Shown here one piece after another: positions 38,811 through 57,034 of a stretch of 64,000 nt of DNA; positions within the stretch are counted from its first letter, which is position 1, and each line of letters starts with the position of its first letter. The notes beneath the pieces are model-generated. The model worked only from the letters and a program-made list of their open reading frames with translations. It searched no databases and was not told the origin of the DNA. This DNA comes from an uncultured Desulfobacterales bacterium (GTDB lineage Bacteria > Desulfobacterota > Desulfobacteria > Desulfobacterales > CAJINA01), in NCBI GenBank assembly GCA_964647585.1, contig CAZYGG010000012.1, positions 4,762 through 68,761 on the forward strand, written 5' to 3'. A program made the translations under genes and the position numbers.

Positions 38811-39033
38811 TAGAAGTCATCTCAAAAAACGGATTTTGGTTCAAGGTCAAGGCGGGCGTTACATTCGAACCGGAGGTGCCAGCGAAGCCAATGCCTTGCG
38901 TGGTAAATACTCCAGTATTTCGAGGATTTGACCCGCCATACAATTGGCAATATGCCTTACGGGGGCGATTTACTCGCCAATTTAGCGTCCAACGCCGAGA
39001 TTGGGCCAAAAGACTTTTTTGAGATAGCTTCTA
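38811..39033. mobile_element. TA-ended MITE (family A, copy 3; longest)
   Basis: tagaagtcatctcaaaaaacggattttggttc...aaagactttttttgagatagcttcta with two internal expansions. Confidence 0.88.
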
Positions 39034-53134: not shown

Positions 53135-53904
53135 CTGATTACCTGTGCGTTGATCGCCAGAAGCTTGAAATTGCCTGGTACGGCCCGAGGCCGGACAAAG
53201 CGCCAACCCTGGTCTTCCTCCATGAAGGCCTGGGATGTGTGGCCCTCTGGCGGGACTTCCCGGCAAAACTGGCCGCCGCAACCGGCTGCGGCGCCTTTGT
53301 CTACAGCCGGCTGGGCTATGGCAAATCCGGTCCATGTGAGCTGCCGCGCCCGATCCGGTTCATGCACACTGAGGGGCTGGATATGCTGCCCCGGGTGCTG
53401 GCTGCCGCCGGTATTAAAGAGTGTATCCTGATCGGCCATTCCGACGGCGGTTCCATCGCGATTGTGTACGCGGGCGGCACACCGGCGCTTCCCCTGCGGG
53501 GACTGATCACCGAAGCGGCCCATGTATTCTGCGAACAGTTATCGGTTGACTCCATAGAAGATGCCAGAAAGCAGTATGAGGAAAACGATCTGCGCCAGAA
53601 ACTGCTTAAATATCATGGCGCCAATACGAAATGTGCTTTCCGGGGATGGAACGACGTCTGGCTGAACCCGGATTTCATGGCCTGGAATATCGAGGAATAC
53701 CTGCCGGGAATTCAAGTACCCATGCTGGCCATACAGGGAAAAGGTGACCAATACGGCACCGACGCCCAAATTCAGTCCATCAAGCAAAAGACCGGACCGG
53801 CCACAAAAACCCTGCTGCTTCCGGATTGCCGGCATGCGCCGCATGCAGAACAGGAGCAGGCCACCCTTGAGGCGATGCAGACATTCATACAAAACCTCCT
53901 GTAA
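53131..53904 (+). CDS. Alpha/beta hydrolase
   Basis: FLHEGLG, GHSDGG nucleophile elbow, QGKGDQYG and HAPH motifs. Confidence 0.92.
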   Translation: MTDYLCVDRQKLEIAWYGPRPDKAPTLVFLHEGLGCVALWRDFPAKLAAATGCGAFVYSRLGYGKSGPCELPRPIRFMHTEGLDMLPRVLAAAGIKECILIGHSDGGSIAIVYAGGTPALPLRGLITEAAHVFCEQLSVDSIEDARKQYEENDLRQKLLKYHGANTKCAFRGWNDVWLNPDFMAWNIEEYLPGIQVPMLAIQGKGDQYGTDAQIQSIKQKTGPATKTLLLPDCRHAPHAEQEQATLEAMQTFIQNLL

Positions 53905-54024
53905 AACTGAGCAGATGGTGCGCTTTATCCACGTAGACCTGATCGGGGAAAGCTGAAAAGTCTTCAGCCTACGGCTCTGACTTGGCCACGGAACTGTTTT
54001 TTGGACCAAATAAACCCAAAAGTC

Positions 54025-54055
54025 TTGACAAAATGCTCATAGTTACCCTTATAAT
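54025..54055 (+). promoter_or_regulatory. Consensus-like sigma70 promoter
   Basis: TTGACA (54025-54030) and TATAAT (54050-54055); spacer 19 nt, longer than optimal. Confidence 0.6.
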
Positions 54056-54063
54056 ACCCATAT

Positions 54064-54225
54064 GTCCCCCTTCCGAACCTCCAGTTCGCTCAGTAACTGA
54101 CCAGATATGGGCGTCTGCCCGGACACTTAAACCGGCTGGGTGCTTCCCTGGGTAGACAGGCCGGGGAACCGGTAACCAAATCCTTACCAGCTTATACCAT
54201 AAGCAAATTGGAGCGGAGGGGGGAC
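54064..54225 (+). ncRNA. Candidate 162-nt structured ncRNA (possibly 6S-like)
   Basis: 5' gtcccccttccg pairs with 3' cggagggggg(g)ac; ctccagtt/aattggag and gtctgcccgg/ctgggtagac also pair; begins about 8 nt after TATAAT and is followed by T5. Confidence 0.55.
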
Positions 54226-54354
54226 TTTTTCCCGCCTCAATAGCGTCCACCCGCACAGAATCCTTATTAAGTCCCGGGGAAACAAGATCTGTTGAGTTGA
54301 TTGAACACCCCAGGTATAGTACGTTGGTCTTCCACTTGATGGAACACGCAATGA

Positions 54355-54531
54355 TAGAACCCATCTCAAAAAATCTTTTTGTCGGGCGTAGCTCGAAGAG
54401 CGACGACTGATTGGCCCAATCTCGGCGTTGGGCGCGAAATTTAAGTCCTCGAAATACCGGAGTATTCCTCCGGTTCAAATGTCGCGCCCGCCTTGATATT
54501 GAACCAAAATCCGTTTTTTAGATAGATTCTA
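54355..54531. mobile_element. TA-ended MITE (family A, copy 5, reverse) with mini-palindrome insert
   Basis: tagaacccatctcaaaaaatcttttt[gtcgggcgtagctcgaagagcgacgactg]...gaaccaaaatccgttttttagatagattcta. Confidence 0.85.
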
Positions 54532-54559
54532 AACAGTTGTCTAAGATCGCAGGTAAACT

Positions 54560-57034
54560 ATGAAACACTGGAAATTGTGGCTGCCGACGTTGACCCTCGC
54601 AGGACTACTGGTCTGGTGGATGATAGGGGGTCTTCAAAGAGACCTGCTGATTCTGAAGAACGGTCAGTCCCTGCTCGCAGATGAAATCTACCCTGTCGGT
54701 AAGAGTGTATTCTACGAGGATGGGATCACGCTCGATACAATTTCCCGCAGTCAGGTGCAACAAATTATATTCGGGTCTTTGGACGACCCGTCCTGCTATC
54801 AGCCCCTGCTTAAAGCCCATTTCCAAGATTCAATGGCAAAACTGTCCCGTCTGAAACCGCTCACAGGTTGGACCGGACGAGGGCAGCAGCCGCTTTCTCC
54901 AAAGGGGAAATGGTATTTACCATTGATTGTTAGCGGAATCCTCAGCCTGCTGTTATTCCTGGTGGGCCTCAGAGGGTGGCGTCAATATCGCCGCAAGAAA
55001 ACCACCACTACGGTCGATCCAACCGAAAAACCGTTTGTGCCCCTGGCAGATTTTTCCGCTGTGGAAACACTCTTTCTCAGCCTGTTTAAGCTGAAGCTGG
55101 GAGCACCGGCCTCTGCACCGGCAGAAATTGAAAAGGCGCCGCAAAAAGGTGCCGGACCGGGGCAGGTGCTCAACCTGAAAGTCCTCCATGAAGACAGATG
55201 GGAATCACGGCGCATGTCCCTGGCACCCATCGGTGAGGGCACCGGCAGCAAAAGCCAGTGCTTTTATGTTATCTTTGACACCCATATGGTGGTAAAAATC
55301 CCGCCGACACCTATTACCGATTTTGAAGACTACATCGCGCGGGTGCGGGCCGAGACACAAATCATGGTGCGGCTGGCGCCCAAAATCTGTGTTATCCCCA
55401 ACCTGGCTGTTATATTGCGCCGGATACACGTGTTCCCGGATGCTGATAGCCTGCCCCCCGCCCAACTTGAAGATCGCTACATCCGCTGGCTGCGAAAGTT
55501 TCCTGAAAATCAGCGTTTTCTAACCATCGGAGGCAGTTTCGTCTTCTTTATGGACCTGGCACGCTACTATTTCCTGAGCCATGTGGCCGCCGATTTTCAT
55601 GGCAAGGCGGCCGGCCTGGCTGAAGAGATTAAGGCCGATGTAGATATCCTGTCTGATTTGTCGCTGTTTGAAGGCAAGTATGGTCACCGGGGCGGCGAAT
55701 TATGGCCCGCTTTCCATAAAGCCTACGAATCGTTTCGCGTAGAACTCAAAGGCGCTATCTCACAGGCGAATGAACCCGTTTCCCTTTCAGATTGGAACAT
55801 AAAGGAATTGTACCTGGCCAGTATGGCCGGCCGGGAGCCCGGCCTTGCCACTCTGAGTGTATCCGCCGGGTTCAGGTCTTTACTGGAAAACTGGCTGGAA
55901 CAGACCGCTAAATCCGGTACAACCCTTAAACAACGCTACCAGCAGATGCTGAACCACTACACGGAGAAAAGGCTTTTTAACCGCAGTCGTCCACTCATGG
56001 GGGGCATGGTTACCAATCTGCTCACCCTGCTGGCCTGGATTGACGATAAAAAAATCGGCCTGCGTGATTTGAAACCCGACAACCTACTCGTTGCGGGTAA
56101 TCCGGATGAATACCCTCATTTTCTGACATCTGCCCAGGAATACACCATCGGTCTGATCGACCTGGAAACCGCCGTAGATTTCGGGAATGAAGGTGTCGAC
56201 AAGATATCCCAGCCACAACTGGGCGGGACCCCCCTCTACTGCACGCCCAGCCATTTTTTTCCCAACGTCCTTTTACAGCAGCTATACAGTGACCTGCCCC
56301 GGGTGTTCCACCTGCAGGATTGGTACGCTATGATTGCCATTATTTTCGGCGTCGTTACCGGGGACCAGCTTTTCAAGGGTACGGCCTACCAGATTCCCAT
56401 GATGATGAAATCCGTCATGCAGACCGCCGCTAAAAAAGGAGACCTGAAAAAGAAACTGCTCCATTTCACCCGGCAGTTCCAGGACAATACCGCCATCGAA
56501 ACCAGGGAAAAAATTCAACTGCACACAGAACGCTTACGCTCTGTGAACGCACACATTCCCGAAAAGATTCAACAGCGACTGGCGGCACATAATAAAAGCG
56601 AATTGAGCGCCACCCGGCAACAACTCAAGCAGATTCTCGACACTCAGACGGCATTCAACAAAGGGAACAATCGCCAACATCTTGAAAAAAGTTCAGTGAC
56701 AGATCTAAAAAAACTGCGTGCCGGATATAAAAAGCAGGCAGGCCGTGCAAAGCTGGTCAGCCGGTTCGATGAACTGATCCGCATCAAGCAGAAAGCCGAG
56801 ACCCTGGCCGCAAATGGACAATTGCTGACGGGCTCTTTCCCACAGGTCACCATAGACAGTCTGCTTGAAATGATGTTCGCACTGGTTCACGCCCAACTGC
56901 TGTCCGGCATCGACCTGCCCCCCCCGGACCCTGCCCATGGAATTCCGGAACCCGGTCAGGTCGGAGAAAAAGAGATGGAATCGACCGCCAGGATACTGGG
57001 ATACTCGGCGACCATCAATATCCCATCCGGGTAA
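54560..57034 (+). CDS. Membrane-anchored Hanks-type Ser/Thr protein kinase with large insertions
   Basis: Two N-terminal hydrophobic segments; HMVVKIP (VAIK-like), LRDLKPDNLLV, IDLE, GGTPLY and DWYA motifs. Confidence 0.8.
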   Translation: MKHWKLWLPTLTLAGLLVWWMIGGLQRDLLILKNGQSLLADEIYPVGKSVFYEDGITLDTISRSQVQQIIFGSLDDPSCYQPLLKAHFQDSMAKLSRLKPLTGWTGRGQQPLSPKGKWYLPLIVSGILSLLLFLVGLRGWRQYRRKKTTTTVDPTEKPFVPLADFSAVETLFLSLFKLKLGAPASAPAEIEKAPQKGAGPGQVLNLKVLHEDRWESRRMSLAPIGEGTGSKSQCFYVIFDTHMVVKIPPTPITDFEDYIARVRAETQIMVRLAPKICVIPNLAVILRRIHVFPDADSLPPAQLEDRYIRWLRKFPENQRFLTIGGSFVFFMDLARYYFLSHVAADFHGKAAGLAEEIKADVDILSDLSLFEGKYGHRGGELWPAFHKAYESFRVELKGAISQANEPVSLSDWNIKELYLASMAGREPGLATLSVSAGFRSLLENWLEQTAKSGTTLKQRYQQMLNHYTEKRLFNRSRPLMGGMVTNLLTLLAWIDDKKIGLRDLKPDNLLVAGNPDEYPHFLTSAQEYTIGLIDLETAVDFGNEGVDKISQPQLGGTPLYCTPSHFFPNVLLQQLYSDLPRVFHLQDWYAMIAIIFGVVTGDQLFKGTAYQIPMMMKSVMQTAAKKGDLKKKLLHFTRQFQDNTAIETREKIQLHTERLRSVNAHIPEKIQQRLAAHNKSELSATRQQLKQILDTQTAFNKGNNRQHLEKSSVTDLKKLRAGYKKQAGRAKLVSRFDELIRIKQKAETLAANGQLLTGSFPQVTIDSLLEMMFALVHAQLLSGIDLPPPDPAHGIPEPGQVGEKEMESTARILGYSATINIPSG

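Follow-up and report, generated by a model that had tools for sequence, protein, structure and literature searches.

A lineage-restricted candidate structured RNA with its own promoter upstream of a kinase-like gene in uncultured Desulfobacterales

Canonical 6S RNA combines two stems, an outer closing one and an apical one, with a large 5' central bulge that faces a hairpin, and some bacteria possess two 6S RNAs (PMC8414754). A preliminary description of an intergenic element from a member of the Desulfobacterales had proposed a rod-like RNA that could be either a second 6S RNA or a new class. The element lies in a 64-kb stretch of DNA, referred to here as the window, which belongs to the draft genome of the source organism (4.15 Mb; G000). 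G001 and G002 denote its congeners, and L-numbers denote related loci that were fetched for comparison. Based on the computational analysis reported here, the element is very likely a real folded non-coding RNA gene of about 165 nt with a strong promoter of its own, and not a 6S RNA. The new-class half of the proposal is supported if class is read modestly as RNA family, because the element has a conserved promoter, an island of conservation and a covariation-supported structure, and the window contains no Rfam match; the second-6S half fails the model tests.

Several model-based comparisons bear on the relationship to 6S RNA. The 6S model RF00013 has no match in the window at its gathering score (46.4 bits), nor any at E ≤ 10 on positions 53900-54600 (701 nt). 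More generally, none of the 4227 families of Rfam 15 reaches its gathering score in the window, and at E ≤ 10 the 53900-54600 interval gave two irrelevant chance hits only. The canonical 6S gene of G000 resides on another contig (C102:6240-6421, 105 bits with RF00013), and the same model detects 6S RNA in most of the order's genomes, the two congeners included. When the candidate was compared with the G000 6S gene by BLAST, a 7-mer on the opposite strand was all that was returned. Reciprocal searches with lineage-specific models, run with filters off, agreed with this result: the covariance model of the candidate family (R2) gave noise only on the 6S genes of the order, and a 6S model built from 10 of those genes (R3) scored 190.9 bits on the true 6S RNA of G000 and at most 6.6 bits, in partial alignments at noise level, on the five copies of the candidate described below. 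Membership in the 6S family is thus rejected by RF00013, by the reciprocal models and by BLAST, and the proposed resemblance to the 5' arm of Escherichia coli 6S RNA is borne out by no model-based test. The architectures also differ, with no branch point in the R3 consensus and two in R2, and with an apical stem in the candidate (~16 bp) roughly half as long as that of the order's canonical 6S RNA. The proposed rod therefore gives way to a multi-branched fold with at least two branch points and 2-3 additional hairpins. Distribution differs as well: 6S RNA is a near-universal housekeeping gene, whereas the candidate is present in two of the three species of its genus and nowhere else in samples of 301 and 401 genomes. 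As a separate observation, the canonical 6S RNAs of G000 (L007 1501-1682) and G001 (L010) are nearly identical over 182 nt, while the kinase-like proteins of the two genomes are 65% identical over the N-terminal 447 residues compared, which indicates very strong constraint on 6S RNA in the genus.

The features of the candidate gene are collected in Table 1. The TTGACA and TATAAT boxes named in the preliminary description are indeed present at 54025-54030 and 54050-54055. Their spacing in G000 exceeds the optimum of 17 nt and is 18-19 nt across the five copies; because it is 19 nt here, a consensus promoter scan using spacers of 16-18 nt missed this promoter. Perfect TTGACA-N16-19-TATAAT arrangements occur 10 times in the whole genome, and the candidate promoter is one of them. 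From the -10 spacing (7 nt), transcription is predicted to start at the A of an invariant AUG at 54062, the position of which is kept in all five copies and which lies two bases before the terminal helix P1. The reading frames that begin at this AUG are 12, 75, 23, 12 and 14 aa long in the five copies and diverge past residue 4, in line with the earlier judgement that there is no convincing ORF, and a 169-aa ORF on the minus strand has no counterpart in G002. A small protein or a leaderless mRNA was rejected as the product, since the ORFs from the terminal AUG are not conserved. The RNA is single-copy in the G000 genome.

Table 1. Coordinates of the candidate RNA gene and of neighboring features, numbered from the first nucleotide of the window.
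Feature	Position	Strand	Remarks
Glyoxalase/VOC stump MVRFIHVDLIGES*, 13 codons	53915-53956		G000; deletion remnant; RNA and promoter spared
Upstream block and -35 box, CCCAAAAGTC-TTGACA	54015-54030	+	CCAAAAGkCTTGACAAAwT common to 5/5 copies
-10 box TATAAT	54050-54055	+	19-nt spacer from -35; TATAAT, TATCAT or TATTAT in 5/5 copies
Predicted transcript, ~169 nt	54062-54230	+	inferred start at A of invariant AUG; inferred end at end of U5 tract
P1 5' strand GUCCCCCUUCCG, pyrimidine-rich	54064-54075	+	11/11 counted pairs kept in 5/5 copies
P2 5' strand CUCCAGUU	54079-54088 (core 54079-54086)	+	two more pairs possible in relatives
Motif CUGACCAGAU, semi-conserved	54097-54106	+	within 24-26-nt unpaired 5' junction strand; consensus CUGACCWGAU
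Long hairpin: stem A, P3 and loop	54113-54157	+	curated alignments of five copies
Stem A, GUCUGCCCGG/CUGGGUAGAC	54113-54122 / 54148-54157	+	10 bp, two G.U pairs in G000
P3	54124-54129 / 54137-54142	+	lies inside stem A
Apical loop AACCGGC, 7 nt	54130-54136	+	invariant in 5/5 copies
Short hairpin GCCGG-GGAA-CCGGU, GNRA tetraloop	54160-54173	+	RNAalifold, independent prediction
Variable 3'-side hairpins	54171-54204	+	GGUAA/UUACC 54171-54175 / 54184-54188; GCUUAU/AUAAGC 54190-54195 / 54199-54204
P2 3' strand AAUUGGAG and extension	54204-54213 (core 54206-54213)	+	curated structure, RNAalifold
P1 3' strand CGGAGGGGGGAC, purine run	54214-54225	+	nearly invariant
U5 tract directly past P1	54226-54230	+	candidate intrinsic terminator together with P1
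C-rich block CCCGCCUC	54231-54238	+	able to pair with P1 purine strand; comparable block past P1 in 5/5 copies
Promoter of kinase-like gene, TTGAGT-17-TATAGT	54292-54320	+	promoter scan; outside RNA
Kinase-like gene, 824-aa membrane protein	54560-57034	+	weak protein-kinase domain; Pfam Pkinase 20.4 bits, below cut-off

The predicted fold is organized around a long closing helix. Its outer part, P1, is the 12-bp terminal stem with one U.G pair that had been noted together with the five uridines following it (54064-54075 / 54214-54225, then 54226-54230), and the four inner stems described at the same time are likewise all found in place. Duplex energies of P1 range from -19 to -28 kcal/mol across the five copies. 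Changes in this helix are one-sided only, with four pairs going from C-G to U.G, a substitution compatible with the + strand only. P1 is followed by a 3-nt bulge and by P2 (8-10 bp), and the combined helix opens into a multi-helix junction. RNAalifold also predicts P2, for which 88.6% of the cells are paired over 9 counted pairs, two of them with compensatory changes. Beyond the unpaired 5' strand of the junction stands the long hairpin of about 16 bp. Stem A is 86% paired and shows many G.U/G-C/U.G exchanges and one compensatory pair, and P3 is 96.7% paired, with two invariant U.G pairs beneath the AACCGGC loop. The alignment contains no difference among the five copies over CUUAAACCGGCUGGGU, an invariant block of 18 nt.

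On the 3' side of the junction, the hairpin capped by the GNRA tetraloop and the GGUAA/UUACC hairpin are alternatives that overlap at G54171-U54173. The loop of the former is GGAA or GAAA in four copies, and in L026 a stem-loop of 22 nt is inserted exactly within it, behavior that is typical of real helices. The variable hairpins occupy an equivalent place in all copies, with differing sequences and registers; 80% of their cells are paired, with one compensatory pair per helix. In L036, an extended P2 (11 bp) takes the place of the second of them. Thus, the features common to all five copies are the promoter layout, the AUG start, P1 with P2, the AACCGGC hairpin, the GNRA-capped hairpin and the variable hairpins.

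The folding energy and the pattern of substitutions both point to an RNA read from the + strand. The minimum free energy (MFE) is -75.1 kcal/mol, compared with -55.1 +/- 4.4 kcal/mol for dinucleotide shuffles (z = -4.57; 1 of 200 shuffles equals it). Among the five homologues, z-scores against shuffles range from -2.3 to -4.9 for the + strand, and each sequence folds better than its own - strand. Model R2 likewise favors the + strand, with a score of 176 bits compared with 24 for the - strand. A curated structure of 43 pairs was evaluated on the five-copy alignment (A5): 90.6% of its cells pair, as opposed to 38-52% when partners are slid by 1-3 columns, and it contains 5 compensatory pairs and 25 further pair types, as opposed to 0-2 and 7-12, respectively, in the slid controls. 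Covariation had been named beforehand as a check on the fold; we regard it as suggestive, not conclusive, because the alignment comprises five sequences, all of them closely related, and 11-47 of 500 column-shuffled controls score as high as the real one. RNAalifold, which was run on a model-guided alignment and not supplied with the curated structure, recovered P1, the extended P2, stem A and P3, and added the GNRA hairpin.

Homologues, for which the preliminary description had also proposed a search, do exist: four further copies were found, one in a congener genome and three on metagenome contigs, giving five distinct copies in total (G000, G002, L026, L032, which is identical to L033, and L036). 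Eighteen related loci were fetched via the syntenic alpha/beta-hydrolase protein (12 look-ups) and contributed L026, L032 and L036 as new distinct copies. The genus of the source genome has three species representatives; G002 carries the element, and G001 lacks it according to both BLAST and model searches. The same synteny without the RNA was found in G001, L027-L031, L034, L038 and L039, and, being missing from several close relatives, the element is dispensable. No further member emerged when two genome sets sampled from the order (301 and 401 genomes) were searched with covariance models; hits from pattern scans across genome and metagenome collections were either due to chance or on contigs that had been identified before, and plasmid and phage collections contained no match to the candidate. 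As found so far, then, the family appears confined to a narrow clade of uncultured marine Desulfobacterales. Between G000 and G002, the flanking genes encode proteins that are 74% and 60% identical, and third codon positions in these genes are 0.47-0.50 identical, which is near saturation. Against this background, the element forms a conserved island (~54015-54225) with identities of 0.48-0.83 across its length, peaking at 0.72 in the promoter bin and 0.83 in the RNA core. The remaining intergenic DNA outside this island could not be aligned.

In G000 the RNA has DUF169, MTHFR, DUF123, alpha/beta hydrolase, kinase-like protein and amino-acid permease genes for neighbors, and the order at the syntenic loci is MTHFR, DUF123, hydrolase, (glyoxalase), kinase-like gene. 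At all five loci the RNA and the last of these genes share the same strand, the gene following 119-334 nt downstream. Because the RNA sits between the glyoxalase and kinase-like genes in L036, it is the 824-aa membrane protein that is the constant neighbor. The glyoxalase/VOC gene is intact between the hydrolase and kinase genes in L036, G001 and other relatives; in G000 and L026 it has been reduced to a stump, and the RNA and its promoter are intact. A TTGAAA-17-TATAGT promoter is found ~70-80 nt 5' of the kinase start codon at all syntenic loci, with or without the RNA. Because this promoter is retained in RNA-less loci, the RNA and its own promoter together form a block that is present or absent directly 5' of an independent promoter; no target-site duplication was found at the boundary of this block. 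Since the TTGAAA-17-TATAGT promoter is conserved both downstream of the RNA and where the RNA is missing, the candidate RNA is, as judged from the sequence, a unit separate from the kinase-like gene, which keeps a promoter of its own.

Some other features of this region were also noted. The promoter-like block TTTGAAAAAAA-N-CCCAGTATAGTGAAA at 54292-54320 is strongly conserved, with equivalents in L016, L027-L029, L031, L036, L038 and L039. A dispersed repeat with the inverted repeat GGGCGCGAAATTT...AAATGTCGCGCCC occupies window positions 54340-54545 (unit about 54411-54531), where it is inserted between the kinase promoter and the start codon in G000; relatives lack the insertion and have about 70-80 nt between the two. 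The repeat gives ~200 BLAST hits genome-wide, and the family recurs in the window at about 38811-39009 beside a DUF559 cassette. In the RNA-less loci L029 (3833-4039) and L039 (3333-3539), a 68-aa ORF without a Pfam hit was called on the minus strand of the hydrolase-glyoxalase gap, in GC-rich DNA unrelated to the RNA.

The reading we prefer, to which we assign a probability of roughly 55%, is that the element specifies a structured sRNA, transcribed independently and restricted to its lineage, which represents a new family, is free-standing and stable and acts in trans via its apical hairpin and junction. Transcription would be driven by the conserved, near-consensus sigma70-type promoter from the invariant AUG, and the RNA would then fold into the P1/P2 closing helix and a junction displaying the 24-26-nt single strand, the 16-bp hairpin, the GNRA mini-hairpin and one or two variable hairpins. 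A U tract follows P1 in G000 and L026 only, and there P1 and the five uridines would terminate the transcript, leaving a stable sRNA that stands on its own and has its two ends tied up in P1. For the remaining lineages, the 3' end may result from processing of a longer transcript back to P1 or may lie at a local hairpin formed with the C-rich block. The RNA would most likely act in trans, with the invariant apical hairpin and the junction nucleotides serving as a recognition surface for a protein or another RNA. A specific binding partner is suggested by four features: the 18 nt that do not vary among species whose neutral sites are saturated, the GNRA hairpin, tandem U.G pairs under a palindromic CCGG loop, and the competition of two pyrimidine strands for the same purine strand. 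As invariant bases cluster in loops and junctions, we consider a binding or architectural RNA a better fit than an Hfq-type sRNA with a linear seed.

The main rival, which we consider unlikely, is a role in cis, with the RNA serving the kinase-like gene as a 5' leader or attenuator. Unless stopped, transcription from the strong promoter would continue into the kinase gene, the P1 purine strand would pair with either the 5' pyrimidine strand or the C-rich block, and a domain resembling a riboswitch or a protein-responsive aptamer would set the level of read-through. A constant position upstream of the same gene on the same strand is what such a leader predicts, but common descent alone predicts synteny among such close relatives. 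The second pairing partner is also in place. A hairpin between the 3' strand of P1 and the C-rich block can form in all five copies, and the fractions of background 40-mers that pair as well as this block are 0.028, 0.12, 0.30, 0.0013 and 0.014, so that it beats 97-99.9% of the background in three copies. The hairpin and P1 are equal in energy in L032, where the MFE structure contains the hairpin, and in G002 AUUUU follows it. Yet it is never more stable than P1, which at least matches it in every copy. The 3' ends speak against a uniform intrinsic terminator, since G002, L032 and L036 lack the U tract after P1. In L036 the RNA ends ~18 nt before the -35 box of the kinase promoter with no visible terminator, which makes read-through, and hence a leader role, possible at that locus. 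The clustering of invariant bases in junctions and loops is also aptamer-like; on the other hand, five loci in one gene context and one narrow clade are unlike the known riboswitch classes, which recur upstream of related genes in many lineages. Against the leader reading stands, above all, the arrangement of the locus. The kinase gene's own conserved promoter (TTGAAA-17-TATAGT) lies between the RNA and the start codon, placing the element outside any 5' UTR made from that promoter, and it is kept where the RNA is missing. Moreover, conservation does not extend to the spacers separating RNA and gene, and that of G000 even contains the dispersed-repeat insertion.

A more elaborate version of the same idea, which we regard as improbable, is a new class of sensing RNA, with a structured domain that would recognize a protein or small-molecule ligand, stabilize P1 relative to the C-rich-block hairpin, and so decide whether transcription stops at P1 or runs on into the kinase-like gene. 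If true, this would be an RNA switch feeding into a kinase signaling pathway. It is more doubtful still that the element is not a functional RNA at all and is instead a DNA-level feature (for instance, regulatory DNA 5' of the kinase promoter), a very short leaderless ORF, or a decaying remnant. An AUG exactly at the expected transcription start, as in leaderless mRNAs, and dispensability in close relatives would suit this explanation, but the AUG-initiated ORFs differ in both length and frame, conservation tracks the helices with wobble-compatible and compensatory changes specific to the + strand, and an insertion into a hairpin loop leaves the stem intact. In addition, 165 nt with an 18-nt invariant block far exceeds a typical operator site.

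Other identities and contacts were also examined. ARAGORN found 0 genes in 53900-54600, on which basis tRNA and tmRNA were rejected. A retron, CRISPR or mobile-element RNA was rejected as well: no reverse transcriptase, Cas or transposase gene is found among the neighbors and, for a mobile element, the plasmid and phage collections gave no match and target-site duplication is absent. The CCGGC of the apical loop is complementary to a downstream GCCGG in four of the five copies. An H-type pseudoknot between the two was discarded, as a linker of 1-3 nt would have to span a helix of ~16 bp and the pairing cannot coexist with stem A, but it may occur as an alternative or intermolecular contact. 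Complementarity between the RNA and the leader of the kinase mRNA is at chance level (z = -1.1 to +0.7). A perfect 16-nt complement of the invariant apical segment, CACCCAGCCGGTTTAA, occurs at C3:84958-84973 of G000 (L046 2459-2474), with about 0.008 expected by chance, in the intergenic stretch on which a 263-aa ORF and an AsnRS-like gene converge. This site is not conserved, the orthologous gene in G001 and G002 being followed by different DNA, and 13-mer matches to the apical segment are limited to the RNA itself in G002 and are absent from G001. It was rejected as a trans target for this reason, and it is not a paralogue of the RNA.

Least probable of all is a second, strongly diverged RNA of the 6S-like type, which would bind RNA polymerase holoenzyme through open-promoter mimicry: the canonical topology can be mapped loosely onto the candidate (P1 and P2 as closing stem, the 24-26-nt strand as 5' central bulge, stem A and P3 as apical stem, the other hairpins opposite the bulge; PMC8414754), its size and strong promoter suit a stable RNA and bacteria with two 6S RNAs offer a precedent, but nothing specific supports a 6S-like mode of action in an RNA that all of the model comparisons above exclude from the family, that has branch points and a half-length apical stem, that is sporadic even inside one genus and that shares its genome with a canonical 6S RNA.

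If expressed, the candidate would add a new family to the catalogue of structured bacterial RNAs, and it would do so in a poorly studied group, the uncultured marine Desulfobacterales, in which almost no sRNAs have been characterized. It also illustrates that a closing stem and a bubble-like region alone are insufficient to call an RNA 6S. The practical value is modest at present: the family has few members, close relatives can do without it, and it has so far given no hint of its function.

The candidate can be compared with four kinds of described systems. With 6S RNA (RF00013; ssrS) it shares its size, a strong housekeeping-type promoter, 5' and 3' ends that pair to form a long closing stem, an apical hairpin preceded by an unpaired 5' strand of some size, and hairpins on the opposite side; it differs in being branched rather than rod-like, in its much shorter apical stem, in the lack of a match in three model-based tests and in its sporadic occurrence within one genus, whereas 6S is near-universal. 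Riboswitches and leader attenuators resemble it in that P1 closes a structured domain, the 3' strand of P1 has an alternative downstream partner, and the element is co-oriented upstream of one gene. Unlike them, it is separated from that gene by another promoter, has no consistent terminator, is found in one context and one clade, and offers no clue to a ligand. Trans-acting sRNAs of the Hfq type are similar in having their own promoter, a length of 100-200 nt and a lineage-restricted distribution with rapid gain and loss, and those with intrinsic terminators also share the GC-rich stem followed by a U-tract seen in G000 and L026. The stem preceding this U-tract, however, is a long-range helix closing the whole molecule where such sRNAs have a small hairpin at the 3' end; a single-stranded seed is not obvious in the 5' part, three of the five copies lack the U-tract, and neither the kinase leader nor the 16-nt complement on C3 yielded a conserved target. 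Finally, although the candidate matches no Rfam 15 family, has a clearly conserved promoter of its own and counts five members so far, it is like the orphan structured ncRNA motifs of Rfam in combining an intergenic multi-helix fold, invariant loop and junction nucleotides, hairpins of variable length and a narrow range with no known function.
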